Shown here: in pieces, positions 20,803-56,805 of the stretch
Layout of the letters: each line of letters starts with the position of its first letter
How positions within the stretch are numbered: the stretch's first letter is position 1
Origin: Blasia pusilla
Taxonomy: Eukaryota
Direction: 5' to 3'
DNA: 64,000 nt
NCBI GenBank assembly: GCA_050084515.1
Contig: CM114271.1
Span: forward strand, 23,746,001 to 23,810,000
Notes under the pieces: model-generated
Seen by the model: the letters and a program-made list of their open reading frames with translations, nothing else
Told to the model about the DNA's origin: nothing
Database searches by the model: none
Made by a program: the position numbers and the translations under genes

Positions 20803-21010
20803 TTTATATTATTGTGGGAGAATGTTTTCTTAATTTGTAAATACTTTTATGTTTGACACGTGGCAACTGGGTAACCACAAAATGTTTCACATGCAGCAGG
20901 AAAAAAATTGAATTTATGTTTAACATCATTAATATCTTCCCTTAATGAATTATACATTAGTTCTTCAAACACTTTTTTTTTTGCTATGCATTGCACAAGC
21001 ACCTTATTAA
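20803..21010 (+). mobile_element. Helitron-like family copy
   Basis: Full-length homology to 8465-8693 and 30375-30569. Termini are degraded (TT..TTAA). Confidence 0.55.
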
Positions 21011-29880: not shown

Positions 29881-30374
29881 TGTTATTTTTTTAATCAAAT
29901 TTTTTTTTAAACCCCCTTCTACTTTTACTTTATTTCCTCTTTCTCTCTTTTGTAAAAAAATTTCTCTCATTTCTTTTTTTTCCTTTTTCATATCCTACTT
30001 GGATAGGTTATCGCCTTTGTCCTCAACCTAACCTAAAATTATTTTCAAATTAAGATTCCTGAAAATAGGATTTTCCTAGAATAAAAGGATTTTTCTAATT
30101 TTCTCTTGATTTTTATCTCGCCCTGTAAGTAGATATTTCTTTTTTTTCCTCTTTCTTAATAATTCATGTCAAATTCTCATGTTTATCTAATATTTTTGGG
30201 GTGTGTAATGTAGATGGTCAATGTCGATGGATCATTATTACACGCGCAGAGGCACCCACCTGATGATATCACAAATATACCGGTTGGGCAACATATTTCA
30301 AGGAGATATATAAACGTAGAAAAGAAAATTTCTCCGATGTAAGCATCTTTCTTTCTTTTATATCTTAATTTACA

Positions 30375-30569
30375 TCTATGTTATTATGGGAGAGTGACTT
30401 CATGATTTGCAAACAACTCTATGCTCGACAAGTGATAACTGGGCAGGAATGAAAGGTTTCACATGAAAAAAAATAAAATTGTATGGAGAATCATTAATCT
30501 TTTCCCTTGGCTTCACGAGGCATACATATACGTTGTTATCTCGTGTGCATCGCACGAACACCTTACTAG
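30375..30569 (+). mobile_element. Non-autonomous Helitron (best-preserved copy)
   Basis: Inserted between A and T. Has a 5' TC, a subterminal hairpin tcgtg-tgcatcg-cacga and a 3' CTAG. Confidence 0.75.
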
Positions 30570-31420: not shown

Positions 31421-33662
31421 GCTCAGTGATTTGAAGATGTTTACAAGCCCAACTTACAACCACTACCAAAGATGATCTTTGCTACTTGTGTTCTTCATAA
31501 TATTATAATAGACATGGATGATCCTATTGTTGATAATCTCATAGATCACCATCCTCGGGAGGGATGCATGGTGCATAAGGTCGTAACCTTCCTCCAAACA
31601 ATGAAGCAATACATGATGGGAGGAGAAATTGCGATATGATTCCTCTTTTTGATCATGTCATGGGTGCAATTCCATAGTAATTTCAATATTTCAATAATAT
31701 ATGATTGCATAAGTGCACCATAGTTTGTCACTTGTCTCATTATGAATTCTTCTTGAATGTAAGAGCTAACAATCTTCCTTCAAAACTTCTCCCAATGACT
31801 AGAGATCATTGTGAAAGCATCTCCATTGTGTTGTAGGACTTGTAATTCCAATTTCCTTTGGTAACAATCCTCTTTGTATCCACGATCTATAACATCAATT
31901 ATGGAATGAGTGGATTATTGCATAGCTTGGCCCAAAGAGCTCCTTCTTTGATGTTTACCTCTAATCCCAACACCAAGGCTCCTCTTTTTCAAATTTCCCT
32001 CTTTAGTTATAGAGGCCTTTCACGTGTTGGAATATGCATTACTATGTACACAAGACGACAAAATTCATTATTTGAATTGCAAACATCCCATTATTGTGAA
32101 AAACATTGGAAATACATAAACACATGAAAGGAAAAAACAAAGGTATTATAAGCACCTTGAATAGGAGGAAAGGATGGTGGTGGAGTGATTGGAGGCGCAT
32201 TGGTAGGCATCCCTTCTGGAGCCATTGGGGTCTCAAATAGCTCTTCCTCTATATTAACAAATAATGAATTAGTAACATCCCATATATTCATCATATGTAA
32301 TGTTAAGCAACAAAGAAACATTAGCATTCATATTGATGTATCTGGAGTCACAGGAGAATGTATGATAGTGATGGGTGGAGTTTCTGTTGTATTTGAAGTT
32401 CCCTCCTTCAATAGGTATCCATAAGTACCTCAAAGGTCATCATTAAGATCAGGAAGGAGAGATGTATCAAAGTTTCATACTCCCATGCTCTGTGGATCCA
32501 CGTCTTGTTGCTTAGGATGCTAGTCTACTAGATCCTTATAAAACATCTCATCAAAGATTGAAGGTAGACCTCGTTCTTTTCGATCCTTTTTTGACATACA
32601 TGTGTCAATAAAAGATAATGCCTCCCTTCCGTTCCTAATCATGAACCTGAAAATTACATAAGTGTTAGATTTACAAAATGAATTAAACCATATGATATTT
32701 AAATTTTTTTTTCCCTATGACCAACTTACTTTTTTGAAGTCTTTGAAGAGAGCACTCCACTTCTTTTTGCATGTATGCCCATGACAAATGGGTTGTGTCA
32801 TTCCTTTGTTGAAACAATAGTCCACCATTTTTTTCCATTTCATTTTTACGCTGGCCATAGTAGATTGAGTTGTGTGATTTCAGTTCTACTACTTCCATCT
32901 CGTGTCGTTTTTCCGCGATCAACATTTTGATCTTCGTAGGCGTTCATGTAATCAACTTGTCCTTTTGTTGTGGTACTTGAGAGTCAAGTATGACACAATC
33001 ATCATCTACAAGACTTGCTTGTTACAATGAGAAAGACACAAAATGAAAATGAGTACTAAAATTTTCAGGAATGAAAAGTAGTGGAAAGGTACAAATATAT
33101 ATTATAATTATAAGAATTTAAAAAATGGACTTGCCCAAGTTTTCATCATGAAAATTAGTACAAAACTTTATTATAATTAAAATGAGTAGCTATAAAACTA
33201 GAGCTTCCCTCTAGGTCTCTCCTCTTTACCTTGCAATTCTCTATTCACAAAAAATTTAAAATAATAAAAATTTCAAGAAGTTCCACTAAGACAAATTATT
33301 CATAATACCTTCTCCATATTGTAAATGTAGTCCTCACTTGGAAAGCCTAAAGTGCAGAAAGGAAATTTGGTGAGGGCAAACCTACACTTGAAGATACCTA
33401 AACGCATCCTTTCAAACACTTGAAGATAAGGGGTGTAAGAGTTCTCTAAAATTGGAAAAGGTGTTTAAAGTACAAATGAAGCATCTGTGAAAGTTGCCCC
33501 AATTGCAATTTGAAGAAGATTCTCTACTTTTGCAAGCAAATGACAAACATGGTTTTCACGTCTTTTAGGATAGATCGGTGAGATCTAATAGAGCGCCTTT
33601 GCAAGTAGTGGAGGACAGACTCAAGAGGTTGATGATGACCTACTGAGGCTCCGAGAAACGTG

Positions 33663-34116
33663 TGTCACGTCCTTTAGGATAGATCGGTGAGATCTAGTGG
33701 AGCGTCTTCAAGAGTAGTGGAGGACAGGCCTAGGAGGTCGAGGATGACCTGTTGAGGCCCTGGGACTCATTTGGGCTCATTTGGAACCATATTGAAGAAC
33801 TTACTATTTTAGGTTATTACCATTTTGAGTATATGATCGACTTCCTATTTTTGGTAAGTGGCCCTTGACCGCCTATATCAGGTCAAGAGCCAAAGAGGTG
33901 ACTTGGAAGAATAAGTTACCATGGAGAGAGCTTGGGAGAGGGGAGGGGTATATATCCCAAGGAGAGAGAGCTTGAGAGCTCATTCTCTCTTTGTTGAATC
34001 TCTTGGCATGAGGCGGCGGAGCTATGGTCCCTTGCCTTGTGAGTGTAACCTAAGCCTCTCATTAGGAGAGCAGATTTGGTTTGACATGAGAGAGAGAAAT
34101 TGGATCTTACTTTACA
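33663..34116 (+). repeat. Terminal repeat block A1
   Basis: Direct repeat of 43111-43628 apart from two small indels. TG...CA ends. Confidence 0.9.
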
Positions 34117-35663
34117 AAGAGAGAATGAGAGAATGAGAGAAAGAGAGAATGCGAGAATGAGAGAGTGAGAGAGCTTCATGGGGGAGCTCGCTGGTCACTT
34201 GCTGTTTTTGCAGGTTGGGGACCGTGTTCCCCGTTCAACGGCTCATGGGAGTGCTCATTGGAGCAAGGGTTGCTTGGATTGTTCTTTGCATTTGCCGATT
34301 TTTCGTGTGGAAGAGTGGCGCGCGGAAGCGCTGCCGAATTTTTGATAAGGATTGAGTATGGGGGCGTGTTGCCCCATGCCGGTGCTTTTGGGAGCACCAT
34401 GTCGCTTACTGATTTGTATTTTTACAGGTTTTACATTTTTGTTGGGAGGAATCAGCGCGGAAGCGTTGCCGAATGTTGGGTAGAAGAAAGAGACATTGGA
34501 CTTTACGACAATCCCTGTCAATTTTTACTGGAATGTTTGATTCCAAATATTTTTTGATACTAGCGTAGATCGTGAAGCTATACACGCTGTGCAACAAACA
34601 ATACACAATTTGGAGTTGCGAGCAAAAAGTTATGGTCAATCTTGCAAAACTTCCATTGCTACACGATTTTTAGGGTTAAATTGTGCAAACCCTAAACCAG
34701 CCGCCACACCGGCGGCGGCCGTCGCCGTCATAGTCATCGTCAACCATCAACGGTCAACTTTCATCGTCGATGGTCAACCATCACCGTCAATGGTCCACCG
34801 TCCGTTGTCCACCCTTGGTTGCCATTGCCGCCGTTACGGAGTGGAGGGTCTTCCACAACGTTCATTGATTCTCGGACTTGCGTCGCTATCACGTACTTTT
34901 TTTGGCCGCCACCGTCATCAACCTGTGATGGCATATGACCTATTGTTATAGTGTTTGAGTTTTGAGTTCCAGCTGCTATGTTTTGATTGGTAGCCGGTCA
35001 ACGACGACCGGGTACTCTGCCGTGACGCCCGTAGCCGCAACGCGCCGCCGATTGCCGCGTCGTGCCGCTCGTGGCCGCACTGCACCGTCTTGATCATGGA
35101 GCCGCTTCCGCATTGTGGAGCTGAGTGTGGGTTTATTGTTGATTGAGGAGGGTATGACGCCGAGTGCCGCATCCCATCATCGAGGGCCGTTCCGTGCCGC
35201 CTGCAACGCCGCACCGTTCCGCTGGAATTGCACCGTCTATCGAGGATTTTTTAGCAACGTCAGTACGGGAGGAGTATGACTTGCTGATTGGAGGAGTTTT
35301 CTCCACGATCGAGTTGGGGTCGAGATTCGTAGTTCCTGAGGAGCGACATCAACATGTGTTCAGGTTACCCATTCTGGTCCTTTACCCTGCACGTGTGAGG
35401 GATTCTGGGATTTGGGTAGTTTATTTGAGGATATTGGATGTGTGGATGCTGAGAGCATCATTTATGTATGTGATTTAGGGGACATAGACTTGTGTGTGAT
35501 GTCCGGAGTTGAGGGTAGGTTGTCGATGAGATGATAGCCTTGTCGATTTGCCGCACCACACCGCTTATTGCCGCACGTTACATGTCTCAGGGAGGGAGAG
35601 TGTAGATTGAGTGCCGCATGTTTGGGATGAGTGATTGAGGGATTACTCGCGAGGCAAGATTGA

Positions 35664-37669
35664 TTGGGTAAGAAGGGCACGAGGTTCATCACGGCGTCCA
35701 TTCAGGACTTTGAGAGGCGAGGTGGTGAACCCGAGAGTAGCTCTAGAGGTTTTACGCGGAGTGGCGTGAGGTTCCGAGGGTCTTCACTTCAGGGACCACC
35801 TCGACCTCCTTCTGTGTCATCGTCAGACAAGGGGGAGGGTGTAGAGGAATTTGTGAGCACATCGCCACACATTGTGAGTGGTCCTACCAGTTGGGCGTAC
35901 GAGATGGACGACCGGGGTAGAGGACCGCATAGGTTTTCAGGTACAGTAGGTACGATTGAGTTGCACGATTTCATGGCAGAGTTTAGGAGTTCGTGCGACT
36001 CCCAACGGGCCCGGAACTATAGAGAGTTCAACCCGTTTACAGCATGGAACGATATGTTCCAGCATTTAGAGGGGGCACCCATGGACGATAACCATGAGTT
36101 TTCCCACACATATGCCTGTGAGATTGAGGCATGGCGACTCTACTACGACCCACACTATGTGTCATGGACGGAGCCGTTCCCAGATGAGGAGGAAGAGTCA
36201 AGAGAGGCTACTTCCTCTTCCACTAGTGATGTTTTAGGAGGGGTCACTCGCACTGGAGCAGTTGCACCGTCTAGTCAGGTTCGTCCTAGGTCAACCCCGT
36301 GGTTGAGTTCTTTGCTGAGTTGAGGGCGAGCTACCAAGGGGTATGGACGGAAATTTTGTGGAGCATCCACAACTTCCAGAGGCGCTCGGGTGAGAGTTTA
36401 CGTGAGGCTTACACTCGATTGCGCCGGTTTCGGGGTGACAGAGGCTATCAGTTAGCATGGTCATGGATGGACCCTCACGGCCACGGGTGCGGAAGGGTGC
36501 TTCTTATGAACACCTCCCCTACGTTGAGAGATGATTTTAGGACCGCCAAGAACATTGAGCGCAACATGGCGGAGGAGAGCGTAGCCACCATGGGTTCTGG
36601 GCGAGAGCAATCGCGATTGGTGCACCACCTATGGAGCAACGTGGACTCCGAGATAGGTCGTGTGGCACCACGAGCTGGGGGAGGATACCGGGAGCCCGGG
36701 CACGGAGACTGCGCCTTCATATGCGGCTCAATAGCAGCCGCCTACTATTACTTGTTGGTCATGTGGTGGAGCCCATCGCCGCCATTGTCGTGGGTCATGG
36801 ACGTATGCCTCAAAGATGGAGGAGGAGATGGTGCCGCACCAAGAGGTTATCGTGTGACTATTGTCGAGGTATGGTCACACGCGCAGGTGTTTGATTTACA
36901 TCCCGAGTTACGTTCGGACCGAGGGCCAGAGAGGGCACCGGAGCGAGTAGCCGGTCCGGATGGGCCTAAAGATCGTGCACCAGGTGGTCACGTTGGGGGA
37001 CGAGGAGCTGGAGTTTCCCGACAGGATGGTGAAGCTGCCCGTGGAGGAGGTAGAGTACTACCACCTAGACACGCCGAGGGAGACGCCAAACGTGAGGATG
37101 GGATGGTTGCTCAGATATAGGAGCAGATTGCTGATATGGGATTGAGGTTATTCGATGCCGGATCCGTGGCATCGACATCATATGGAGCAGCTAGAGATCT
37201 GGAGGATCCTTGTTGGATGTGCGAGGTTGCCCAGATGGAGGCCGCCGCAGTTGTGACGCGTGGAGCAGCCGCAGAGTTGGATCCACAGTGAGGGGAAGCC
37301 AGAAAATAGAGTAGGCTTCCTCAGTCTTTCACGTTGTCCGAAGCGATGAGGACCCCATCGATGGGTCCTCATCAAAGTTCCTTGAGCGTTGGTGATGTTG
37401 TTGGTGTGCAGGCACGGAGGGCAATGGGAGAAGCGAGTGTGATGACTCCTATTGTTGATGCTCATGAGAGACATATGTCGAGCACATTGTTGGGGGCGGC
37501 CACCGTTGTGTACCGCACTCCTTTATTTTCTGCTTCCGATGTTATGACGTTGGGGGGTACGCCCGCCGAGGCTTTTCGGCTGGCCACGTCGCTATGTGAG
37601 CGCGGGGTTGGAGTTCTTGCATCACGTTCAGAGGTGATTGCAGAGAAGGTGATGGACTGCCGCCTTTGA
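35664..37669 (+). pseudogene. gag-like region of the inner Gypsy element
   Basis: RFSG....LHDF..EFR and FQRRSGESLREAYTRLRR; a frameshifted CCHC knuckle (tgtgactattgt...ggtcacac..tgt) at ~36855 that is intact in the relative at ~58100-58170. Confidence 0.7.
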
Positions 37670-37799
37670 GCGGATGCTCGGACCGTCACGCCGTCGAGAA
37701 TCATGGCGGTCATGGTCGCTAGAATGGCGGAGATGCCCGCTAGGCCCGCGATAGAGCGTGTCATGGCTTCTCCTGGTGTTGTGTTGCTGGATAACCAAG

Positions 37800-38150
37800 G
37801 AGAGGTCTTCCAGTTGGTGAGTCCAAGAGGTAGAGCTTTTAGTCCGCAGCGCGTCTTGTTGGATTCAAGAGCGCAACCCTTGATGTTAGGAAAAGCATCA
37901 TTTAGAGGATTGGGCTTGACGAGAGCCGATGTGGAGTGTTGTCCATTCCGGATAAAGACATCCTTGGATGGAGCGAGTAACACACAGTATATCACCCGAC
38001 ATGAGGTCGTGGTGAGGATTCTCCCGGGACATCCTACTGATGAGTCTGTGGTGCGCGCCAAGGCGATACTGATTGATGCAGAGTCCTACGACATCTTGGT
38101 TGGTGGAGCAGTGTTATACCCGATGGGGTTTTCCTTGGATTACTGGGAGG
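37800..38150 (+). pseudogene. Retropepsin-like aspartic protease domain
   Basis: RVLLDSRAQPLML (the catalytic DSG appears as DSR) and C-terminal YDILVG. Confidence 0.75.
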
Positions 38151-38569
38151 AGCCAACATCCTACAGACCAGGATGGCAGTCAAGTGATGGGCACCTTAGC
38201 TCATTACCCGTTCGATTCACTGGTGTAGTGATCGAGCAACGGCCAGGAGAGATGGCGACCTTAGCAGCATTTAGCAGTGCCATCACTTGGCCTAGTGATT
38301 TGATTGAGGGAGATGTCCATGCAAAGGATACTCTCGTTCTTGACATTTCTATTGAGAGGAGTGTTATGGTAGCTGCATCATTCCGTGGAGGAGAGGTGCC
38401 GTTGTGGGACTCGACTGAGGAGCTTCGACGATTGGCAAATGAGCACGTGCAGACCGCATGGAGCGAAGCGTTTGCATCGGAGCGTGACGGGTCTGAGGAA
38501 CCCGAGGTAGCAGGGAGTGCTACAATGACACCCTTGGATACAACACCCATTGTGTGGTGTATCCCGGAG

Positions 38570-39490
38570 GAGGGTATTCGAGTATTAGATCTCTTTGGAG
38601 GGTTTAGCACTGGGTTAGCTGCTGTTTTGCAGGCAAGAGTGCGAGTACAACAGTACATGTATGTGGAGAGTGATGATGTTGCAAGGCGCGTCTCACTACG
38701 ACATGTGGCGCAGTTACGCCTACGTTTTCCCGACTTATTGTCTGGTCAGCAAGACATGGGTTGAGTTCCCTACCGAGGGATATTTCGTTGTTGGGGGCGC
38801 AAGACTTAGAGCGGGTAGGGACCATTGATTTGGTCATTTCCGGTTGGCCATGTCAAGGCCAATCGAGTGCTGGACGAGGTAGCGGGTTGGTCGACACTCG
38901 GTCCAGGTTGTTTTGGGAGATGTTGAGGGTCTTACGACGGTGGCGGGGAGCACCGCCTCGTTCTTGACCTACATTCGGAGAATGTGCCGATCTTAGAGAC
39001 TCAGTCACGGGTGGTGACGAGTGGTCATCATGTGCGTGCGTGGATCGGCCCAGCAGTTGTTCTTGATGCGGCGAGTGTAGGTTCTAGAGCCCATCGCCCC
39101 GCGTCTATGATGGACCAACTTGGTGCCCCATGCGGTGTTGGGCGTATGGGAGAGTGGGCGCCCCTCCCATTTGTTAGTGGATTCCATTCTAGATCCAGTC
39201 GCCGATCACAAACAAGTGAGGCACGATGATCGACCACCGCTGGATCGTGGTCAATGTCAGGTAGGCCGCGAGCGGCCTTGCCCACATTTGTGAGTTTTCC
39301 GCTTCCTACTCATACAAGGAGGTCGGGCCTCGCTTGGTTTGGGATGACCATGTCCATCGGTTGGTGGAGCCCAACGCCGATGAGAGAGAGCCCAGAGTGA
39401 CGGCAAGATCGGTGTTAGAGGCATCACGACGCTATGTCTTGGGTCAGCGATGGACTGAATCGCTTGACATGGATCCTCGGCTTGGGAGTG
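38570..39490 (+). pseudogene. DNMT3-like C5 cytosine DNA methyltransferase domain within pol (frameshifted)
   Basis: Motif I VLDLFGG..TG; II YVE; III DI; IV DLVISGWPCQGQS; V G.GL...RSRLFWE; VI ENV; VIII AHRP; IX-X EPNADERE...LGQ.MD. Confidence 0.9.
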
Positions 39491-39799
39491 GCGAGAGAGC
39501 GTCGTATGAGATCGCGGATCATAGCGGTTGCGTTGGTGAGCCCCATGCCTCATCGAGACAGTGGAGGCGTGGTGGGGCGAGACCCGAGGAGATCTACACA
39601 CCGGGGAGATCGGGAGAGACACCTTGGACTTCTTGGGATGTTTTTGTACGCTGAAGATGATAGCCACAACATCGAGCGTGGTTTTTGCAATCTTTGTATA
39701 TGGAGGAGATCGAGTTTGTAGTTGGTCAGAGAAGAGCAGCCAAGCGTTGTTGTTCGAGACAGGGTTGCACCATTGCAGAGAGTCCTACCGTAGTCACGA

Positions 39800-41230
39800 T
39801 GGAGACTTGAGAGCCGATATGGGCCCTAAGTTGAAAGGAGGAGAGCGGCGCGGATACATTAGTTCCTCACGAGTTATAGGAGCTGCTTTCTATTTAGCAT
39901 GGAGGATTTGGGTACGCTAAAGGGACCGGGGGTCCGCATTGAGTTGTCGAGTGATACGCCGATCTTCCGACGACCCTACAGGTACAGTGATATTGAGAGG
40001 GGTGTGATTCAGAGTAGGAGCCAGGACTTGGGTGAGCGGGACTAGTGGAGATGTCCCATGGGGAGTATCTCCATTTCATGCCCGCCGAGAAGGACGTGCA
40101 TGGCAACTGGACGGATAGGCGGATGTGTGGGGATTACCAACCTATCAATCGACAGACGAAGTCCAATAGGTATGGCATGCCTACCCCTGAGGAGATCTTT
40201 GATGCAATTGGTCATGCAAAGGTCTTCAGTTCATTGGATTTGCGAGCCGGATACCATCAACGCCTATCAGATTGGAGGACAAGCGTAAGACGGCATTTTG
40301 GGGCATCGATCCTCACGGGAAGGATTGTTTGTACTAGTGGCGGTTCTTACCATTTGGGTTAAAAAATGCCCCGGCTGAGTTTCAAAGGGTCATGGATAGG
40401 ATCTTGGTTGGTCTGGATTTTGCTAGGTGTTATATTGATGATATCATAGTCTTTAGCGCCACGGTTGAGGAGCATGAGCGATAGCTAGAGGAGGTGTTTC
40501 GACGATCGCAATTACATGGGCTGAAGCTACATCCAGGCAAGTGCAAGTTCTTCTATGACCAAATTGAGTACTTGGGTCATACGATATACCCCAAGGGGCC
40601 TTGGTGTTCAACAAACGAAGGTAGAGGCTATCTCACGCATTCCATGCCCTACACATGTGAGCCAGGTTCGCGCATTCATGGGATTGGTGAACTTCTATCG
40701 GCGATATGTCAAGGGATTCAGTTTGATTGCGAAGCCACTGACCTTGCTGACCAAGGTGGATCATGAGTGGCACTGGGGGGATAAGCAGGAGCAAGCATTT
40801 TAGTTGACGTCTGCGCCCATCTTGAGGAGACCGATCAGGGGGCGTCCTTTCTAGTTGCACACAGATTGGAGCATGTTGGGCCTTGGATCAGTGCTCACCC
40901 AGCATGATGATGAGGAAAGAGAGTTCGTGGTGGCTTACACTAGCCGCTCAAACAACGCTGTAGTACACCTCGTATGAGGGTGAGTGCTTGGCTGCGGTGT
41001 GGGCTGTCGCGTATTTCAAGTGTTACTTATTCGGCAACCCCTTTACCATCATCACTGATCATCAACCACTGAATTGGTTGATGGAGTCCGACAAGCTTAC
41101 TAGAAAGCTTGCGAGATGGGCTCTGTTGTTGCAGGAATATGATTTTCAGGTGGTACATAAACGTGGGACGCTCAACCAAGATGCAGATGGGTTGAGTTGT
41201 AACCCATGCCCGAGTCAGCGAGATGCGACT
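39800..41230 (+). pseudogene. Gypsy reverse transcriptase and RNase H
   Basis: [66 protein letters not shown]. Confidence 0.93.
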
Positions 41231-41539
41231 TGAGCTCGATGGCATGGAGAGAGTGATGAGGAGTCGGTGTCGAATTCGGCCCTATTTAGGCATGTTGGCG
41301 ATGGCGAGGTCTAATGGAGAGTCCTGGATCCCGAGGCGGTGAGAAGACGACAGTGGCCGAGATATTCATGATGATGGAGAAGTCTTGGAGTACCTTCGAT
41401 CTTGGCAGGTGCAGCACTGTGGGTGCTAGAGAGCGAGATCGATCCTCTGACCGGGAGGCGGTTCCGTTGGGAGGGGACACATGTTTTGAGGGTTTGGGAG
41501 GATGGCAGAGTACGCGAGGCCGATCCTTTGCAGAGAGCA

Positions 41540-42794
41540 CGACTAGTGCAAAGATGCCCACGAGGAGTTGGGTCACTTTGGGATGAAGCGAACGCATGCC
41601 TTGCTCCAGATTCGATATTGGTGGCAAGGTATGCAGATCGGCGTTCAACGCTTTGTTGCTAGGTGCATGGTGTGTGATTGCGTCCGAGCATCGTTCAATG
41701 CTCGACTCCGATTGCATCCATTACCGATCATGGGCTTAGGGTATAGATGGAGTTTGGATTTTGCAAGACCTTTACCTTTGACAGAGCGTCAGAGTCGTTA
41801 TGTGTTGGTGATGGTCGAGCACTTCTCGAAGTGGATCGAGTTGGTTGCATTGCGTGACAAAGCAAGTGAGGGAGTAGCTTATGCCTTCGTTGACAGAGTG
41901 CTAAGTCATTATGGCGCACCGGCTGAGGTGTTGTCAGACCAGGGTGCCGAGTTTTGGGGTGAGTTCCAAGCCTTTTGTGATCAAGCGCTGATCGACCACC
42001 GCATGACTTCGCAAGATCATCCCGAGGCGGATGGATTAGCAGAGAGTGTTGTGTAGACGGTGAAGAGGGGTTTACGCAAGTATGGCTTACAGAGAGGTCA
42101 CCTACGAGATTGGGACCTCCTGTTGCCATGGTTGGCGATGGGATACAGATTCAGCAAGCAGACATCCTTAGCGTCTTTTTCACCGTACTTGCTACTTTAT
42201 GGCCAAGAGCGAGATTCACCAGCGGCCATTCGTCGAGATGCTGGTGAGGTGCTGGACCTTGATGACCCAGATGTATGGGTGCGAGCATGTTCTCAGAGGG
42301 CTGAGTTATTTCAGAGAGTGATGCCCATGGCGTTCGAGAACTTGGCGATTGTGCAACATCGGGATACGTTGAGATATGCGACTATTCGGGGTGGTGGTTA
42401 TCGACCAATTATCCAGAAGTTTCATCAAGGAGATTACGTCTACTTGCAGCAGACGGCACCGACGAGGTTGGATGTGACTGCAGGACGCACTATCCTGAGA
42501 GTGCATGACGTTTTGCCATCCGGTGTTCTTTTGCTAGAGGGACGCGATGGTATGGTATGGAAGAACCATGTGCGTAATTGTGCACCATATCACCTTCCTA
42601 ACATTGATAGTACATTGGATCCGAGCTTAGCAGTAGTTCCTGCAGGCTTGCGTTGTATGTTGTGTGGTTATGTCCGTGGTGCGGCCACGATGCTAGTCTA
42701 CGATGGTTGTTCGAGAGGTTGGCATATGGCATGTCTGACCCCCCCTCTCACTAGGGTTCCAAGGGGACGATGGATGTGTACCAGATGTACATAG
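41540..42794 (+). pseudogene. DDE integrase with C-terminal PHD finger (42654-42791)
   Basis: HHCC zinc finger (H..LGH...CMVC); WSLDF / LSDQG / GLAE triad; C4HC3 pattern CMLC...(C>Y)DGC...WHMAC...WMCTRC. Confidence 0.92.
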
Positions 42795-42971
42795 AAGAGA
42801 TACTAGGTAGGTTTCGATCCCGACTTTTTCTCTGACATGGATGACAGGAAGGCGAGTAACGATGGGGCCACATGAGCACCAGGCCTTCTTGCTCTTAGCG
42901 TCCGAGAGATGTATGTCATGGTAGGTAGGAATAGATGGCTATCTGGAATTAGAGGGACCTAACCACCAACT

Positions 42972-42982
42972 AGGGGGGGCGA
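42972..42982 (+). other. Polypurine tract
   Basis: agggggggcga lies immediately before block B1. The equivalent aggggggcgg precedes the B-like block of the minus-strand copy (55920-55929). Confidence 0.7.
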
Positions 42983-42983
42983 T

Positions 42984-43108
42984 TGGAGATATTTGGTACT
43001 TCTTGTCTTGTTGTTTGGATGCCATGAGTTAGTATGGGATCGTGCGTGTTTGTGTGTGTGTTCGGTGACAACGATGTATGTTGTGTAGCGATGTGTATAC
43101 GCACGACA
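42984..43108 (+). repeat. Terminal repeat block B1
   Basis: Direct repeat of 43630-43754. TG...CA ends. Confidence 0.9.
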
Positions 43109-43110
43109 GT

Positions 43111-43754
43111 TGTCATGTCCTTTAGGATAGATCGGTGAGATCTAGTAGAGCGTCTTCAAGAGTAGTGGAGGACATGCCTAGGAGGTCGAGGATGACTTGC
43201 TGAGGCCCCGAGAAACCTGAGAGAGCAGGTTTCCCCTTCGTTTTGGCTCATTTGGAGCCATATTGAAGAACTTACTATTTTAGGCTATTACCATTTTGAG
43301 TATATGATCGACTTTCTATTTTTGGTAAGTGGCCCTTGACCTCCTACATCAGGTCAAGAGCCAAAGAGGTGACTTGGAAGAATAGGTTACCATGGAGAGA
43401 GCTTGGGAGAGGGGAGGGGTATATATCCCAAGGAGAGAGAGCTTGAGAGCTCATTCTCTCTTTGTTGAATCTCTTGGCATGAGGCGGCGGACCTATGGTC
43501 CCTTGTCTTGTGAGTGTAACCCAAGCTTCTCATTAGGAGAGTGGGTTTGGTTTGACATGAGAGAGAGTACACACCTTTGAGAGCTATGGTGTGAGATTGT
43601 GTAGAAAGAGTTTGGATCTTACTTTACATTGGAGATATTTGGTACTTCTTGTCTCGTTGTTTGGATACAATGAGTTAGCATGGGATCATGCGTGTTTATG
43701 TGTGTGTTCGGTGACAACGATGTATGTTGTGTAGCGATGTATATGCGCACGACA
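43111..43754 (+). repeat. Terminal blocks A2 (43111-43628) and B2 (43629-43754)
   Basis: A2 repeats 33663-34116 and B2 repeats 42983-43108. Confidence 0.9.
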
Positions 43755-46198
43755 CGTGAGAGAACAGGTTTCCCCTTCGTTTCGGCTCATTTGGAGCCAT
43801 ATTGAAGAACTTACTATTTTAGATAAGTACTATTTTGAGTATATGATCAACTTTATATTTTTGGCAAGTGACCCTTCACCTCCTACATCAGGTCAAGAGC
43901 CAAGGAAGTACTTGGGACCAGGTCATCATGATGAGAGCTTGGGAGAGGGGAGGGGTATACCTCAAGGAGAGAGAGCTTGAGAGCTCAATTCTCTTTTTGT
44001 TGAACCTCTTGGCATGAGGCGGCGGAGCCATGGTCTTGTTTGCCTTGTGTGTGTAACCCAAGTCTCTCATTAGGAGAGTGGGTTTGGTTTGACATTAAGA
44101 GAGACATGTGAGAGTGCACACATGTGAGAACTATGGTGTTGTGAGAGAGATTGGATCTTATTTTACAAAGAGAGAATGAGTGAATGATAAAGCTTCATGG
44201 GGGAGCTCGCTGGTTGCTTGATGTTTGGTGCAGGTTGGGGGACCGTATTCCTCGCTTCATGGCTTATGGGAGTGCTCACCGGAGCAAGAGTCGTGCGAGT
44301 TTGATGTTTTGCTTTGCTGATTTTTTTTGTAGGGGAGAATGACACGCGGAAGCGCTTCCGAATTTTCGATAGGAATTGAGTATGGGGACGGATTGCTCCA
44401 TGCCGGTGCTCTCAAGAGCACCATGTAACTTGCTGATTTGTTTTCTCACACGTTTTATATTTTTTTGGGAGAAATCAGCGCGGAAGCGCTACCAAATTTT
44501 GTGTAGGAGAAAGAGACGTTGGGCTTTACGACCATCCCCATAAGTTCTTACTAGAATGTCCAATTCAAAATATCTTTTGATAGTGTTGTAGATCATGAAG
44601 TTATGCACACTCTACTATAGATAATGCACGATTTGGAGTTGCGAACAAAACGTTACGGTCAATCTTGCAAAATTTCCATTGCTACGTGATTTTTAGGGTT
44701 AAATTGTTCAAACCCTAAATGACCCGCCGCCCCGGCGGCCCGTCGCCGTCAAAGGCACCGTCACCATCAACAATCAACGTTCCACCATCACCATCAATGG
44801 TCAACCATCACCGTCAACGGTTCACCTTCCACCGTCGGCCGCCACCGCCGCCTAGTGTTGCTTAGAGCCGCGTTCGGCCGTTGTCCACCCTTGGTTGCCA
44901 TTACCGCCACTACAGAGTGGAGGGTCTTCCACGATAGCCGTTATTTCTCTAACTTGCGCCGCCACCACGTACTTTGTTTTGGCCCCCACCGTCATTGCAG
45001 TTTCGTCATCAACCAGTGATGGCAGGTGACCTCGGGTTATGGTGTTTGAGTTTTTATTTCATGGTGCTATGTTGTGATTGGTAGCCTCTTGACGATGATC
45101 AAGTACTTTGCCGTAACGCCCATAGCCACAATGCGCCACTGATTGCCGCCTCGTGCCGCTCGTGGCCGCACCGCACTGTCTCGATCGCGGAGCCGCTCCT
45201 TCACTAAGGAGCAGAGTGTGTGAATTGTTGATTGAGGAGGGTATGCCGCTGAGTGCCATATCCCATTCTCCAGTGCCGTGCCGTTTGTAGCCATTCCATG
45301 CCGCCAATGCCGCACCGGACTGTTAGACCTGCACTTCACATCAAGGAGGTTTGAGCAATGTCAGTACGAGAGCAGTTTGACTTGCTGATTGGAGGAGTTA
45401 TCTTCATGACCGAGTTGGGGTCGAGATTTGCAGTTCCCGAGGAGCGACATCAACATCATTTTCAGGTTATCCATTCTAGTCTCTTACCCTGTACGTGTGA
45501 GAGATTTCTGGATATTGGGAAGTTATTTGAGATATTGGGTTTCGTGGTGATTGAGAGCATCGATGATGTATGGGTTTAGGGGACATAGACGTATGTGGGA
45601 TATCCAGAGTTGAGGATGGTTTATCGATGAGACGATAGATCAGTTGATTTGCCGCACCATGGATGATGTAAGGGTTTAGGGGACATAAACTTGTGTGGGA
45701 TGTCTAGAGTTGAGGATGGTTTGTCGATGAGATGATAGATCAGTTGATTTTCTGCACCATACTCCTTGTTGCCACACAACACACATCTCAGTGAGAGAGT
45801 GTAGATTGAGTGTCGCATGTTTAGTTTTAGTGATTGAGGGATTACTTGCGAGATTGAGAGTGATCATGTGAGAGGGGCACGAGGGCCATCACAACGTCCT
45901 TTCAAGATTTTGAGAGGCGAGGTAGTGGACCTGAGAGTAGCTCTAGAGGATTTACTTGGAGTGGTGCGAGGTTTCGAGGGTCTCCACGTGAGAGACTACC
46001 TCGATCATCTTATGTGTCATCTTCAAACAAGAGGAAGCATGTAGAGGAGTGTGTTAGTGATCCACCGTACACATTGAGTGGTCCTACCAGTTGGGCATAC
46101 GAGATGGACGACCGGGTTAGAGGATCGCGTAGGTTTTCGGGTGCTGCAGATACTCTAGAGCTACATGACTTCATTGTGGAGTTTAGGAGTTGGTGTGA

Positions 46199-49100
46199 CT
46201 CACACACATACCACCATGGAGAATAAAATTTGCAATGAGAGATTGAGTGGAGGCTAGTCCTCTTCTCAATTATATAGGGTATGTACAAGAAACCCTAACC
46301 CTACCCTTAACCATAGTCTCGAGCTAGACTAACTTCGATTAACTAACCCTAGTTAAGATAATCGTGCTTAACTAACTAACCAAGATTAAGCTTCCCTACT
46401 TCGTGTGAGTACCAAATATAGCAGTTCACGTGTCTCATAAGCTTGACTCTAATTCAATCTTCAATACTCCCCCTCAAGCTCATATCGATATCTGTAACGC
46501 CTAAATCCTTTCTAAACATCTCAAACTTATCTCTAGACAATGCCTTTGTAAAGATGTCAGCAATTTGTTGATCTGTACATATATACAGAAGATCAATTTC
46601 TCCTACAAGCACTTTCTCTCTGGATAAATGATAGTGCACCTCAACATGCTTTGTACGAGCATGAAACACAGGGTTATTAGCAAGCTTGATGCTACTAACA
46701 TTGTCTGCATATATTACACTAGGTCCTAAGTTACTAACACCAATCTTAACAAAGTAATCGATGAAGCCACACCGTCTCACATGGTGCATTGGTTGCTCAT
46801 CTGCACTCAGCCTCTATTGAAGATAAAGCAAATGTAGGTTGCTTCTTTGAAGCCCAACTTATAGCTTCCCAAAGTAAAGGAATATCCAGATGTGGAATGT
46901 CGATTAGACACACTTCTTGCCCAATCAGCATCTGTGAATTCCTATAATTGAAAACTCGGAGAAGGTTCAAATTGAAGCTCGAATTGAATAGAGAATTTCA
47001 CATACTGCATAATCCTCCTCACAACATCAAGGTGAGATTTTCGAGGTGCTTGCATAAACTGGCTCACTAGGCCAACAACATAGCTCAAATCTGGTTTGGT
47101 TATTGTTAGATAGATCAAACTTCTAACCATGTGTCTTTACATATTAGAATCTGCAAGCAGTTCTCCTTCATCCACTCTTAGCTTCACGCTGTGGTCTAAT
47201 GGTGTAGAGATTGGCTTACAAGCCGTCATACCATATTTTGAAAGCATATGAAGAGCATATTGTTGTTGTAGTAACCACATGCTCTCTCCAACCTTGATAA
47301 ACTCAATACTAAGGAAGTACTCGAGTTCTCCCAAATCCTTCATATAAAATTCTGCTTGTAACTTAAGCTTGACTCATTGTACAATTTCTTCAGTATTCCC
47401 AGTAATCAAGAGATCGTCAACATACAACACAATGAGAATTGTATGATCTTGTCCTCTCGAGACATATAACGAGGAGTTAAAATCATATACCCTAAAACCT
47501 AACTCTTGTAAGATGTATGTAATCTTGCCATACAAGCTCTTGGAGCTTATTTGAGCCCGTATAGAGCTTTCTTCAACTTGTACACGCGAAATGGAAACTT
47601 AGGATGCTCGTATCCAGGTGGTTGAGTCATATATACCTCCTCGTATAGATCTTCATTCAAGAAAGCATTCTTGATGTCCATATGATGTAATCTTCACTTC
47701 TTACATACTACAACTGCAACCACTGTTCTCATAGTCACAATCTTTGCAACAAAGCTAAATGTTTCCTTATAATCAATACCATATTGTTGTGCATAGCCCT
47801 TAGCCATCAATCTCGCTTTGTATGTGTTAATTGTACCATCTTGATTGCGCTTGATTTTATAAACCCATTTGCAACCAATAGATTCATAGATGAATCTATT
47901 AATTGGATATGTATTTCTACTTGATCTACGAAGTTGTTGTTAAGAGGTAGATGCCTCTAACACCTAATTCGAGCTCTGACTAGTGTCAACAGACTGAATA
48001 CGTACTCTTGCCATCCATGGACTCACAGATTTAACTGATGAATCTAGGACCTCTCCTAATCCTGCACTAGTACTTGGGAAAGTTGAAGACAATGTCTGTT
48101 GGTTTATACTCATATTTTTCCCCTCAACAGACAAGTTTAGAGGTGGAATAGGCTACAATGGAGCATACCATAACTTATGCTCATCAAAGGCAACATCCCA
48201 ACTAAAAATACGCTGCCTAGAGGATGGAATGTAGCACTTATACCCCTTAGTTCCATCAACATAGCCAATGAAGATACATCTTTCAGACTTGGGGTCTAAT
48301 TTCTGACGTCTCTCAGAAGGAACAAGAGCATAACAAATACAGCCAAATCCTTTCAAGAAGGAAAAATCAGGTTTACTTCCTGTGAAGACTTCGAATGGAG
48401 TTTTATCATGAACTCTTGCTGTTGGAGTTCGGTTGATTAAGAAGACTGTACATGCTACAACCTTTGCCCAATATACCTTAGGCATGTTCTTCTCATTCAG
48501 CATAGCTCGTGCCGCTTCAATAATATGTCGATTCTTCCTTTCAACCACTCCATTTTGCTGTGGAGTGTAACGGCAAGTCACTTGACGTTGGATGCCATTC
48601 TGACGTAAATAGTCATCAAACTCTATTGAAAGATACTCTCCTCCTCCATCACAACGCAATTTGAGAATGTGTTGTCGAATCTACTTGTCTAGTAGAACTC
48701 TAAATGTTTGGAACACTGAGAATACCTCTGACTTGGCTTTCAGAAAGTATACCCATATATACCTAGAGAAGTCATCAATAAATGAAACAAAGTAGTGAAA
48801 ACCACTAAGGCTATTTTGTGATGCTGTCCACACTTCACCGTGGATCAACTCAAATATCTTGGATGCTCTTCCACCTTGCTTTGGAAAAGGAAATCTAGCT
48901 TGTTTTCCTAATAGGCAAGCAGAACATACCTCTAACGTAGTAGGACTCGCTAATTTAGGGAGTCATATTACTATATTAGATGATGAAAGACTCACTAAAC
49001 TTTGAAGATTCATATGTCCAATTATTTTATGCTACATATTTAGATCTATGACATGTTGGTCGGTTTGATCATACATTGATGTTTGAATCTCTGGCATAGA

Positions 49101-50834
49101 AATGTCTAATTTGAACTTTCTGCCAGATCTAGTTCTTTTGGCTATCGTAGTCTGGTCATCCATTGTTTCAATGAAACAACCATCTGCGTTAAAATTCACT
49201 TGATAACCGTGTTCTACTATTTGTCCTACAGAGATTAGATTTCTTGCAATCGTAGGGACATAAAGAGCATTTCCAAGAGCACAAAGACCATCTGATGTTA
49301 TTGGAACTTTACCGATATGCGTGATATGATGTTGAGTGCCTCTTCATCCATATGCTTGATATCCACCACGACCACAGAAGTTTCTGCCACGACCCCCGCC
49401 TCTGTTTGATCCATAACTTGCAAATAGCGCACTCTCTTGCAGACTAGATGAGCTACCGCTACATACTAGGCGCATCTCTTCACTGATCAATACATGAATT
49501 GACTCTTGAAAGGTTGGATACTTCTTTCTCATAGAGATAGAAGTCTGAAAGGATTTATAATCCTTTGGAAGACCTTAAAGAGTGAAAAAAATCAGATCAT
49601 CTTCTAATTTCACTCCAATGCTATTCAATTGATCAACAATATGACTAATACTCAAAATATAATCATTGATGCCCTATGATCCTTTCCTCACTTCGTTCAA
49701 TTGCTGTTTGAATTGAAGCTTTATGGACTTTGTAGATGTCTGGGAACAGCTTTTCCAATGCATCCCATGTCTCCTTTGGAGTATCAACATCTTGAATGTG
49801 ACCTATTATTGGCGAACTGATCGTTATTCAAATGTAGTGGATTACTTGCCTTGCGCGTTCGTTCCAAGCGCGAACATTCAAGTTTGTTGAGTCACCTTCT
49901 GACTAAGCCTCATCACTTGTGACAAGCTCCCATAATTCTTGACCCATGACAAATTGTTTCATGCAAAACTTCCAGACATTGTAATTCTGTTTGTCTAGCT
50001 TCTCGCTTGTGATTGCTGTTGAGGAATACTCCATGATAAACGATTTCACTCACAAAAACATAATTTCAGGATTTCTACTACTCCAACTGAAGCATAGACC
50101 ACTCCTACACAGAAATCAACCTGAAATTTGCCAAAATTGATCAACTGTATGAAAGAACTAGTTGAAATTGGCTTGTAGAGACCAAACTACACACTAATTG
50201 CACTTTCTTACACTGAAATTGCTATTGCAGGAGCTTAGAGTGTCCGAATCAAGCGATTTTAGGTGCGTTGGAAAGCTCTCAACGAGCTCTACAAGAAGGC
50301 TAGAACCAACTTTTAGCATTGTTCTAGCTGAAGCGGACTCAGACGGCTGAATCGGCCGGGAAAGCCCTAAAAATTGCCTCCAAAGTTTTATCACCGTCAA
50401 AGCTCCACCTGAAATTTGCACCGAATTTCTTCTCCCAATCTGAATTTTTTCCTTCTCTTGCCTCTCTTCTCTTTCCAAACACCAAGAATTTCAAGTGATG
50501 TTCTCCTTCCGCTCTGATATTATGTAGAAAACTGTTACACAAGCATAATTGGTGGTAAACGGCTCTCTCACACATACACCACCATGGAGAACAAAATTTG
50601 AAATGAGAGATTGAGTGGAGGTTGGTCCTCTTCTCAATTCTATAGGGTATGTACAAGAAACCATAATCCTACCCTTAACCATAGTCTCGAGTTAGACTAA
50701 CTGTGATTAACTAATCATAGTTAAGATAATCGTGCTTAACTAACTAACCAAGATTAAGCTTCCCTACTTTGTGTGAGTACCAAATGTAGCAGTTCATAGA
50801 TCTCATGAGCTTGACTGTAACTCAATCTTCAATA
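46199..50834 (-). mobile_element. Degenerate Ty1/Copia LTR retrotransposon; 5' LTR 50523-50834, 3' LTR 46199-46466 (end deleted), PBS remnant 50511-50522
   Basis: Integrase RCDGGGEY...YTPQQNGVVERKNR and SERCIFIGY lies upstream of RT (YKARL.AKGY.Q, VLYVDDLLI) and RNase H (NPVFHARTKHVEVHYH, QIADIFTKAL). PPT GAGGGGGAG. PBS TAATATCAGAGC resembles tRNA-iMet TGGTATCAGAGC. Confidence 0.93.
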
Positions 50835-51864
50835 GTTATGACGTTGGATGGTACGCCCGCCGAGGTTTCCTGGCTGGCCGCTACGCTATCTGAGCGTGGA
50901 GTTGGAGTTCCTACATCATGTTCAGAGGTGATTGTAGAGGAGGTGATGGACATGCCCTTGGAGTTGATGCTTGGGCCATCCACGTCAGATTCATGGCAGG
51001 CTGCAGCTGCTAGGATGACAGAGATGCCCGCTAAACCCGCCATAGAGCGTGCCATGGCTTCTCTAGGCGTTGTTTTGTTGGATAACCGGGGAGAGGTCTT
51101 TTAGTTGGTGAATCCAAGAGGTAGAGCTTTTAGTTTGCACCGCGTCTTGTTGGATTCAAGAGCGCAACCCCTAATGTTGGGGAAAGCGTCATTCAGAGGA
51201 TTGGGCTTGACGATAGCCGATGTGGAGCGTTGTCCATTTCGGATACAGACATCCTTGGGTGGAGCGAGTACCACACAGTATATCACCCGACAAGAGGTTG
51301 TGGTGAGGATTCGCTCGGGACATCCTACAGATGAGTTTGTGGTGCAAGCCAAGACAATAGTGACTGATGTAGAGTCCTACGACGTCTTGGTTGGTAGAGC
51401 AATGTTATACCCAATGGGGTTTTCCCTGGATTACTGAGAGGAGTCAGTGTCCTACAGACTAGAATGGCAGTCAAGTGATGAGAGCCTTAGCTCATTACCC
51501 ATTCGATTCACAGATGTAGTGATCGAGCAACGGCCAGGACAGATGGCGACCTTAGCAATATTTTGCAGTGCCATCACTTGGCCTAGTGATTTGATTGAGG
51601 AACATGTCCATGCAAAGGATACTCTCGTTCTTGACATTTCTAGAGGGGTGTCATGGTATCCGCATCAGTCCATCCATGGAGGAGAGGTGCCACTTTGGGG
51701 CTCGACTGAGGAGCTTCGACGCTTAGCCACTTAGCATGTGCAGAACGCGTAGAGCGAGACGTTTGCACTAGAGTGTGACGGGTCAGAGGAACCCTAGGTA
51801 GGCAAGAGTGCTCTTATGACCCCTTTGGACACCGCCCCGATTGTGTGGTGCATCCCAAAGGAGT

Positions 51865-52760
51865 GTATTCGGGTGTTGGATCTCTTTGGAGGGATCAACA
51901 CTGGATCAACAATGTGGAGATTGATGATGTTGCGAGGCGCGCTTCACTTCACCATGTGATGCATTTATGCTTCCATTTTTCCCACTTGTTGTCTGCGTCC
52001 GCCATTCAGGGTTACCAAAGTTCCCTATCGAGGGACATTTAATTGTTGGGGACGTAGGACTTGGAGCGGGTAGGGACCATAGACTTGGTCATTACTGGTT
52101 GGTCATGTCAAGGCCAGTTGAGTGCTGGATGGGGTAGCGGATTAGTTGACTCTTGGTCTAGGTTGTTTTGGGAGATGTTGCCGATCTTGCGACACTTGCA
52201 AAAGCATCAGTCTCGTCCTCCCGTATACATTCTGGAGAATGTACCGATTTTGAGCGATTCGAGGTGTCGTGTGATGACAAGTGCACATCAAGTGCGCACA
52301 TGGATCAGCCCGGTAGTTTTGTTGGATACGGCGAGTGTGAGTTCACAAGCACATCGCCCACGTCTTTGGTGGAACAACTTGGTACCATACGAGGTGTTGC
52401 CGAGGGCATATGCGAGAGTGGAGCGCCCCTCCAATTTGTTGGTGGATTCTATACTGGATCCGGGCCGTCGATCACACGCAGTGAGGCTAGATGATCGACC
52501 GTCATTGATTGTGGTCAACAGGATTGGCACGCCACGAGCAACCTTTCCCACATTGGTGAGTTTTCCCTCTTCCTATGCATTCAAGGAGGCCGTACCTGGC
52601 TTGGTTTGGGATGACCAAGAACAAAGGTTGGTGGAGCCTAACGCCGATGAGCGAGAGCAAGCGATGGGATTCCCCACAGGAGTGACGGTATTACCGTCAC
52701 TATCATAGGCATCACAACATCATGTCTTGGGTCAGGCGATGGACATGAACTGCTTGACAT
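51865..52760 (+). pseudogene. DNMT3-like methyltransferase domain, second copy
   Basis: VLDLFGGINTG, DLVITGWSCQGQ, YILENVP, SQAHRPRLWWNNL, EPNADEREQAMGFPTGVT, VLGQAMDMNCL. Confidence 0.9.
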
Positions 52761-55782: not shown

Positions 55783-56805
55783 TATCGTGCGCGTATATAT
55801 CGCTACATAGCATACATCGCTGGTAACATCTACACCACACAACACCGATCTTCCCCACACATGGGTCAATCCACACATGTACAAAAATCAACTCATACAT
55901 ATACATGGAGATCACACAACCGCCCCCCTAGCTGGCAGTTGGATCCCCCCCACTCTAGATAGAAAATATCACATCTTTCTGACATGACCTACTACCGTAT
56001 ACACATCTCGGACACATCCATCGTCTCGTGGGAACCACATCAAGAGGGGGGGTTGGACATGACATATGCCACCCTCGAGAACAACCATCACATACCAACA
56101 TGGTGGTTGCATCCCTTGCAGATCCGCACAACATACACCTCAAGCCTGCAGGTACCACTGCCACGCTCGGATCCACCATCCCATCTACGTTCGGAAGATG
56201 AAATGGCGTACAATTTCGCACATGATCCTTCCAAACCATACCATCCCATCCCTCCAACATGAGGACTCTGATCGGTAATACCTCGCGCACACGTAGGATC
56301 GTGCGCCCTGCAGTGACTCTAGCGTCGTGGGTGCCGCCTGCTGTAAATACACGTAATCTCCAAGATGAAACCTCCTAATCCCTGGACGGTAACCTCCTCC
56401 ACGAATGGTCGCGTACCTCAATGTATCTCTATGCTGGGCAATAGATAAGTTCTCAAAGGCTATAGGCATAACTCTACGAGAAATCTCCGCCCTCTGAGAA
56501 CATGCTTGTACCCACACATCTCGATCATCAAGATCTAACACCTCTGCCATGTCACGTCGAATTGCTGGTGGTAAATCTGGCTCTCTCCCAAAGAGCAAAA
56601 AGTACGGTGAAAATGACGCCAAGGATGTCTGCCGACTAAAGCGATAACCCATAGCCAACCATGGCAACTGTAGGTCCCACTCCCTCAATTGTCCCCGGTG
56701 CAAGCCATACTTGCGCAATCCTCTCTTCATCGTATGTTCCACTCTCTTCGCCAACCCATCCGCCTCAGGATGACCTCTGGACGTGGTGCGGTGATCTATC
56801 AGCGC
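55783..56805 (-). mobile_element. 3' fragment of a third, related Gypsy copy: integrase C-terminus, intact PHD finger, PPT, B-like terminus
   Basis: IDHRTTSRGHPEADGLA...; PHD CMLC..CDGC..WHMSC..WMCPRC; PPT at 55920-55929; end ...gcgcacgata at 55783. Confidence 0.88.

Follow-up and report, generated by a model that had tools for sequence, protein, structure and literature searches.

Split direct repeats in a Ty3/Gypsy-type element with a DDE integrase from Blasia pusilla and in related loci

A 64,000-nt stretch of the Blasia pusilla genome (assembly GCA_050084515.1, contig CM114271.1, positions 23,746,001 to 23,810,000 of the forward strand; hereafter the window, from whose first letter all coordinates are counted) contains four copies of one repeat family, recognized by self-comparison and direct reading. 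The second of them (copy 2; 33663-43754) carries the remains of a DDE integrase and is bounded by split direct repeats: a block A stands at its 5' end, and its 3' end is made up of a block B, a spacer of two nucleotides (NN), a second A and a second B. This arrangement, A-body-B-A-B, is the norm of the family and not a one-off. We put it at about even that this locus represents a Ty3/Gypsy-type clade (DDE integrase with a C-terminal PHD finger, Dnmt-like domain in Pol) as one of its ordinary, decayed members, that the normal form is A1-primer binding site (PBS)-body-polypurine tract (PPT)-B1-NN-A2-B2, and that the clade moves by the joined-end route proposed below.

In textbook classification split direct repeats mark the tyrosine-recombinase elements and identical long terminal repeats (LTRs) the integrase elements. 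The clade considered here breaks this link between repeat layout and integration enzyme, and has so far received a one-line mention in a figure legend. The layout as such is thus already in print; what is new is the position of the priming sites with respect to the integration ends, the palindromic purine-pyrimidine (RY) joint, the 4-bp target duplications and the concerted evolution of the repeats. The anatomy, once worked out, makes the mechanism directly testable, namely how a retroviral-type integrase inserts a circularly permuted cDNA, and it bears both on the rebuilding of ends in DIRS-like elements and on the part that joined-end (2-LTR-type) DNA plays in integration. On the practical side, LTR finders that search for two identical terminal repeats will mis-annotate split-repeat Gypsy elements.

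Block anatomy of copy 2 and of its relatives

The blocks of copy 2 were mapped by self-BLAST of the window and direct reading of the sequence. They are listed here together with the two pieces of the host copy (copy 3) into which copy 2 is inserted:

33552-33662, plus strand: 5' part of block A of host copy 3 (A positions 1-111), split by the insertion
33663-34116, plus strand: A1, the 5' repeat, TGTCA...TTTACA (self-BLAST and direct reading)
34117-42971, plus strand: body, comprising the leader, open reading frames (ORFs) and a decayed Pol
42972-42981, plus strand: PPT, aggggggg(cg), abutting the upstream side of B1
42982/3-43108, plus strand: B1, terminating in ...CGACA
43109-43110, plus strand: 2-nt spacer GT of the end-to-end joint GACA-GT-TGTC
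43111-43628, plus strand: A2, a complete copy of A
43629-43754, plus strand: B2, fused to the end of A2 without added bases; the inserted unit ends at the last base of B2
43755-44167, plus strand: remainder of block A of host copy 3

The order A1, PBS, body, PPT, B1, GT, A2, B2 reproduces that of a preliminary description of the window, PBS apart, including the PPT in front of B rather than A and the GACA-GT-TGTC joint; the start of B1 is moved from 42984 to 42982/3. Base 43628 (a) can be counted as the last of A or as the first of B. A1 and A2 are 90% identical over 457 columns (A2 is the longer, two deletions being found in A1), and B1 and B2 are 93.7% identical over 127 nt. As the same description had claimed, B is missing from the 5' region: BLAST finds no 5' copy of it in the window, and the 200 nt upstream of the three window A starts align to B at the level of shuffled sequences.

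Copy 2 is flanked on both sides by CGTG (33659-33662 and 43755-43758), a 4-bp target-site duplication, and the two flanking pieces of copy 3 together rebuild one block A. The whole A1...B2 unit was therefore inserted as a single piece, which places the previously noted duplication on firmer ground than had been claimed for it. The sequence around the B1-GT-A2 joint contains no repeat of the outer CGTG, so neither half of the unit has a duplication of its own.

Related loci were collected by scanning metagenome contigs with an integrase-PHD alignment: 296 stretches matched, of which 191 code for a relative, and the 80 best were retained as loci. By their A and B blocks, 26 of these 80 end in integrase-PPT-B-A-B, 3 have an incomplete B-A, 23 have a single B and 28 are without a recognizable B (most of the latter extend for less than 1 kb beyond the integrase). 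The incomplete cases (L039, L057 and L080) are interrupted by the contig end or rearranged; in L080, A follows directly on B at the contig end. When loci sharing the same downstream flank were merged (L005, which has no downstream room, being left out), 13 distinct insertions with B-A-B, 15 with a single complete B and 3 with a truncated B were obtained. A PPT-B-NN-A-B end in 13 distinct related insertions supports the earlier suggestion that this DDE-integrase element replicates in a non-standard manner. The clade has a breadth in bryophyte-like sequences that is newly shown here.

The PPT directly precedes B1 in 26/26 B-A-B loci, and the joint reads GACA, GATA or AACA, then NN, then TGTCA or TATCA. 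In the window and in each of the 13 distinct loci the spacer consists of a purine followed by a pyrimidine (GT, AC, GC or AT), and the GACA-RY-TGTC core is therefore a perfect or near-perfect palindrome. At the other joint, the end of A2 is fused to the start of B2 with 0-2 extra bases. At the outer ends, 9/9 readable 5' ends (six loci and three in the window) begin exactly at TGTCA with unrelated DNA upstream, and in 15 distinct loci B stops exactly at GACA, where unrelated DNA begins. In none of these nine 5' ends does B occur within 200 nt upstream of A (alignment scores of 7-14, against 15-21 for the best shuffles and 115 for the positive control). The ordinary LTR form, in which the same block stands both right after the PPT and right before the PBS, was seen in none of the related loci, so that identical LTRs with an adjacent PBS, which the preliminary description had named as the finding that would reduce this locus to a one-off or an artefact, are not what the family presents.

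Complete units from the start of A to the end of B are flanked by 4-bp duplications in 5 of 6 cases:

Complete A1...B2 units with a 4-bp duplication: window, CGTG; L027, CATA; L049, CATA
Complete A...B units with a clean 4-bp duplication: L008, TACA; L033, ACTA

In each of the five, pyrimidines alternate with purines; with five sites only, this is no more than a hint of a target preference.

Within one element B1 and B2 are 86-98% identical, and the B pair and the A pair are as alike as LTRs; across elements, B1 and B2 do not form separate lineages. Both pairs of repeats must therefore be remade in each cycle.

One further observation concerns five loci with B-A-B ends (L028, L051, L053, L054 and L073), which share a similar downstream flank in spite of a divergence of about 12% between their A blocks. 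These loci may represent one insertion in related host genomes, or an element residing inside a larger repeat.

A putative self-complementary primer binding site

In all three window copies in which it can be read, the end of A runs into a GA-rich tract, and no TGG follows it. On both points the preliminary description was right; its conclusion that no PBS is visible is not supported. The GA-rich tract is, judging by its complementarity to the predicted 5' end of the RNA, probably a self-priming PBS of the Tf1 type. In copy 2 the relevant features are:

33949-33955, plus strand: TATA box in A1
33979-33994, plus strand: anti-PBS and predicted RNA start in A1, beginning 30 nt after the TATA box
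34114-34129, plus strand: PBS of 16 nt, overlapping the last 3 nt of A1 and followed by the GA-rich leader; perfect complement of 33979-33994

When compared with 1000 dinucleotide shuffles, the complementary stretches of copy 2 (16 nt) and copy 1 (12 nt) were each matched in 0/1000, as was that of L074 (13 nt), while the 10-nt stretch of L003 was matched in 2 of 1000. The pairing is maintained across lineages by different sequences: in lineage G1 the PBS ACTCAAAGAACT pairs with AGTTCTTTGAGT (12-13 nt in the best-kept A copies), in lineage G2 AATCACCAAAAGT pairs with ACTTTTGGTGATT (13 nt), and in lineage G3 the complement amounts to 13-16 nt in the best-kept A copies. PBS and anti-PBS thus covary, with four different sequences in four lineages. 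In every lineage with a recognized TATA box the anti-PBS begins 30-33 nt past it, and it therefore coincides with the expected start of transcription. The predicted R-U5-PBS RNA of copy 2 adopts a fold closed by the 16-bp PBS stem (z = -2.37).

Just upstream of the anti-PBS lies a further copy of the PBS, and the two form a hairpin within A (33949-33994) whose 5' arm repeats the PBS and whose 3' arm is the anti-PBS; the hairpin is kept in four lineages with different sequences. It may serve to mask the internal (A2) anti-PBS from pairing.

Self-priming of this kind has precedents. Tf1/sushi elements and plant Tcn1 elements are described as having a PBS that pairs not with a tRNA but with the first bases of their own RNA (PMC6317226), and the likeness to the present family lies in a PBS next to the 5' repeat that can pair with the predicted RNA start. 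Those elements, however, possess two ordinary identical LTRs, whereas here the repeats are split and the anti-PBS forms part of the hairpin just described.

A tRNA-type PBS was considered and rejected: no window copy has a TGG in the 27-60 nt directly following A. TGGGGGAGCTCGCTGG is found further downstream of A, at a variable distance. ARAGORN detected no tRNA genes in the window.

Two sets of ends and a proposed route to the provirus

The PPT adjoins the first base of B and the PBS adjoins the last base of A, so the reverse-transcription signals define an LTR of the form B-NN-A. On this reading the first 315 nt of A would belong to U3, together with B and the spacer, and R-U5 would correspond to the last 139 nt of A1. 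The integration ends are different: they are the start of A (TGTCA...) and the end of B (...GACA), which lie side by side inside B-NN-A. Relative to LTR-body-LTR the provirus is therefore circularly permuted, the opening being at the B-A joint of the left LTR.

We propose that the usual LTR-style, self-primed reverse transcription would produce a linear cDNA, (B-NN-A)-body-(B-NN-A), whose ends would then be joined as in a 2-LTR circle, the end of A meeting the start of B. The integrase would open one internal, near-palindromic B-NN-A joint by cutting after each CA, and, given the 2-bp spacer, the 3'-OH ends would be recessed and the 5' ends would overhang by 2 nt, as in the standard integration substrate; the permuted linear DNA would finally be inserted with a 4-bp stagger. 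In this scheme the RNA may be given its 3' end at the end of A2 with B2 as the GU-rich downstream element, and copies with a single B could be either deletion products between B1 and B2 or the products of cutting at two joints.

The integrase step has a counterpart in retroviruses, whose integrases are reported to be able to cut the palindromic LTR-LTR joint of 2-LTR circles (foamy virus, and HIV-1 in vitro; PMC1180852, PMC1905944); as described there, abutted ends forming a CA-spacer-TG palindrome are cut by the integrase to give integration-ready ends. In retroviruses, however, the joint exists in the circle and not in the provirus, whereas here it lies inside the genomic copies and the provirus is permuted around it. 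A second parallel is bacterial: in insertion sequences of the IS3/IS30 type a DDE enzyme acts on ends that lie a few bp apart in a circle or a tandem dimer. If the joined-end route is true, its obligatory end-joining would amount to a junction-intermediate mechanism like that of IS3/IS30; these being DNA-only elements of bacteria that do not use reverse transcription, the comparison is an analogy only.

Several observations weigh against the joined-end route. The joining of the ends, the opening of the joint and the position of the RNA ends are all deduced from sequence alone. Random opening of the joints of a 2-LTR circle should make the reversed form, A-B-NN-A-body-B, equally common, and it was found at 0/9 5' ends; a bias, or a fast loss of the reversed form, must therefore be assumed. 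Neither a reversed A-B-NN-A nor a free-standing A+B unit was encountered in the window or the roughly 80 loci, in which little flanking DNA is sampled. Copies with a single B (15 distinct and two in the window) are as frequent as those with B-A-B (13 distinct and one in the window), and no difference in decay was found between the two kinds (Mann-Whitney p = 0.33), a result which neither supports nor excludes deletion as the origin of the single-B copies. One of the six complete units, the A...B unit L074, has no target duplication, and the A2-B2 joint of L049 contains two extra bases (GG). Six degraded copies (W3, L008, L027, L044, L049 and L070) show no significant PBS complement, which we attribute to the decay of their sequences. 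Finally, neither B nor a repeat pair was found in six loci, the most divergent ones (L018, L055, L056 and L063-65), which extend for 1 kb or more downstream, and the split-repeat layout may not be valid for the entire clade.

In its broadest form the proposal would hold that an entire DDE-integrase clade of green algae and bryophytes never integrates linear LTR-to-LTR cDNA; that the ends must be joined before the integrase cuts the palindromic joint inside the LTR; and that the provirus is a fixed circular permutation, A-body-B-A-B, the DIRS-type layout thus being set by a joined-ends intermediate and not by a tyrosine recombinase. We advance this tentatively, as a possibility that we would rather bet against.

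Among the alternatives, a DIRS-like restoration of the ends survives best, though we think it unlikely. Here a sub-genomic transcript would start in A1 and end in A2 or B2, the internal B1-NN-A2 would serve as the template for rebuilding the outer ends, much like the internal complementary region of DIRS-1, and the DDE integrase would carry out the insertion. The layout agrees with that drawn for PAT-like and Ngaro elements (PMC7192593; legends to Fig. 1e and 4c of PMC5890265), B1-NN-A2 consists of exactly the two outer ends placed next to each other, and the observed orientation is the only one predicted, in keeping with the 0/9 reversed 5' ends that burden the joined-end route. Such a scheme nevertheless leaves unexplained the PPT by the first base of B1 and the PBS by the last base of A1, both being ordinary LTR primers, which would place the cDNA ends at the start of B and the end of A rather than at the integration ends; moreover, the reverse transcriptase and RNase H domains are of the Ty3/Gypsy type, and integrase elements are not known to carry out any step of the DIRS model.

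Far less probable is the second of the readings put forward in the preliminary description, according to which the true unit is an LTR-less A...B and the window locus combines such a unit with a tandem, internally deleted A+B mini-element. The single-B ends of 15 distinct copies and of window copies 1 and 4 speak for it, as do the clean 4-bp duplications of the single-B copies L008 and L033. It is disfavoured by the single 4-bp duplication around the whole of A1...B2, inserted in one piece with none for either half; by the concerted evolution of A1 with A2 and of B1 with B2; and by the recurrence of the same tandem in 13 distinct insertions from at least four lineages, with a 2-nt spacer and a blunt A-B joint throughout (the GG of L049 apart). 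Besides, under the standard LTR scheme a unit with no downstream A would yield an RNA devoid of a 3' copy of R and of the first 315 nt of A.

The remaining reading, that these are ordinary elements with B-NN-A as LTR which have lost the 5' B, or that the locus is an assembly or rearrangement artefact, could draw on the age and rearrangement of the window copies (the inverted leader of copy 1, the tail-to-tail arrangement of copies 3 and 4), but it is refuted for practical purposes by the exact TGTCA starts after unrelated DNA (9/9), the exact GACA ends before unrelated DNA at 15 distinct loci and the same structure in independent metagenome assemblies.

Encoded proteins, known elements and other repeats of the window

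Pfam scans covered 39 ORFs of copy 2 and three intact relatives (P0015, P0009 and P0026). The coding features of copy 2 are:

35664-37120 and 37670-38764, plus strand: two ORFs without a Pfam match
38677-38967, plus strand: fragment of a C5 cytosine DNA methylase inside Pol (PF00145, E 1.9e-9)
40338-40766, plus strand: reverse transcriptase (PF00078), frameshifted
40855-41233, plus strand: RNase H (PF17917, PF17919), frameshifted
41547-42056, plus strand: DDE integrase, H2C2 zinc domain and rve core (PF17921, PF00665)
42057-42794, plus strand: C-terminus of the integrase with a PHD finger (PF00628), after one in-frame stop

All frames are broken, and copy 2 is therefore dead. The order reverse transcriptase-RNase H-DDE integrase is the same in copy 2 and in the three relatives, and no match to a tyrosine recombinase (Phage_integrase, PF00589) was obtained in the 39 ORFs or the three relatives. 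When the integrase-PHD ORF was used as query, 43 longer proteins matched: among those with a named source the best are liverwort proteins, of Marchantia polymorpha (75% identity) and Calypogeia fissa, while Klebsormidium nitens (e.g. the integrase protein P0037, 45% identical to the window ORF) and volvocine algae supply more distant ones. The intact relative P0015 (1516 amino acids) combines DNA methyltransferase (DNMT), reverse transcriptase, RNase H, integrase and PHD finger in this order, and its DNMT-bearing N-terminus matches copy 3 at 51860-52774 (E 5e-27). A DNMT-like region upstream of the reverse transcriptase is present in most related loci with sufficient upstream sequence (L003, L004, L015, L018, L027, L034, L044 and others). 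DNMT-carrying Gypsy elements appear to reach beyond Klebsormidium, since the nearest named proteins are from liverworts.

The element shares with Ty3/Gypsy LTR elements the order reverse transcriptase-RNase H-integrase, the TG...CA ends (TGTCA...GACA), a short target duplication (4 bp here, 4-6 bp being usual for LTR elements), a PBS by the 5' repeat and a PPT by the 3' repeat, the latter being here at the start of B1 and not of A2. What it lacks are identical terminal repeats: the 5' end of the window family is A only, and the 3' end is B-NN-A-B.

With PAT-like and Ngaro elements it has in common the layout A1-body-B1-A2-B2 and an internal B-A joint that consists of the two outer ends abutted. 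Tyrosine-recombinase elements typically insert without a staggered-cut target duplication. The window element differs from PAT-like and Ngaro elements in having a DDE integrase in place of the tyrosine recombinase, a 4-bp duplication, PPT and PBS positions of the LTR type, and a reverse transcriptase and RNase H of the Ty3/Gypsy type. It is not a member of the DIRS order, because it is without a tyrosine recombinase and makes a target duplication.

The closest published parallel is KnitGypsy-Dnmt3 of Klebsormidium nitens, for which Gypsy domains, a DNMT in Pol and DIRS-like repeats are remarked on, and left unexplained, in section 9 and the legend to Fig. 4c of de Mendoza et al. (2018, PMC5890265). 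Going by that description, the two elements resemble each other in a Gypsy-type Pol with a cytosine DNA methyltransferase domain and in their DIRS-like repeats. The main text of PMC5890265, however, is silent on PBS, PPT, target duplication, joint sequence and mechanism, and does not mention the PHD finger, which is present in the window element; moreover, the host there is K. nitens, whereas the nearest named proteins of the window element are from liverworts. The statement of the preliminary description that an A1..B1A2B2 layout is typical of Ngaro and PAT elements and not of Gypsy is thus correct in general, this figure legend being the one exception in print. Our literature search found the split-repeat layout in an integrase element nowhere beyond PMC5890265, the supplement of which may hold more, and the name KnitGypsy in no other paper.

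The other copies of the family in the window are less complete:

3737-6889, plus strand: copy 1, a defective derivative
44168-55693, plus strand: body of copy 3, truncated at the 3' end, 75-84% identical to copy 2
55783-56806, minus strand: copy 4, 3' part only, with the end of the integrase, the PPT and a B ending at 55783

Copy 1 begins with A (3737-4254), continues through the PBS and leader as far as 5825, and closes with the leader again in inverted orientation (5832-6782) and an internally shortened B (about 6800-6889); a target duplication was not found around it. In copy 4 the PPT (reverse complement) lies at about 55920-55935, and B ends against unrelated sequence with no A after it. 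Of the two further copies previously thought to end at a B-like block, the one at 6889 is copy 1, with its shortened B, and the one at 55783 is not the end of copy 3: the B found there belongs to copy 4, on the minus strand.

Inverted duplications recur in the defective copies. In copy 1, leader faces leader (4260-5189 against 5832-6782); copies 3 and 4 lie tail to tail (55295-55693 against 56147-56544); and in L039 (1282-1798) A stands against an inverted, partial A. These may be snap-back products of reverse transcription.

Repeats of other kinds are also present. An unrelated element of about 4.6 kb (46199-50834), with ordinary direct LTRs of 268 bp that are 91% identical, is nested in copy 3. 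A dispersed repeat of about 2.2 kb is represented at 88-2396 and 11121-13287 (70-78% identical). Finally, a repeat of about 93-200 bp, possibly a small non-autonomous element, occurs four times (8463-8555, 15936-16028, 20801-20893 and 30373-30465), with identities of 65-83% between its copies.

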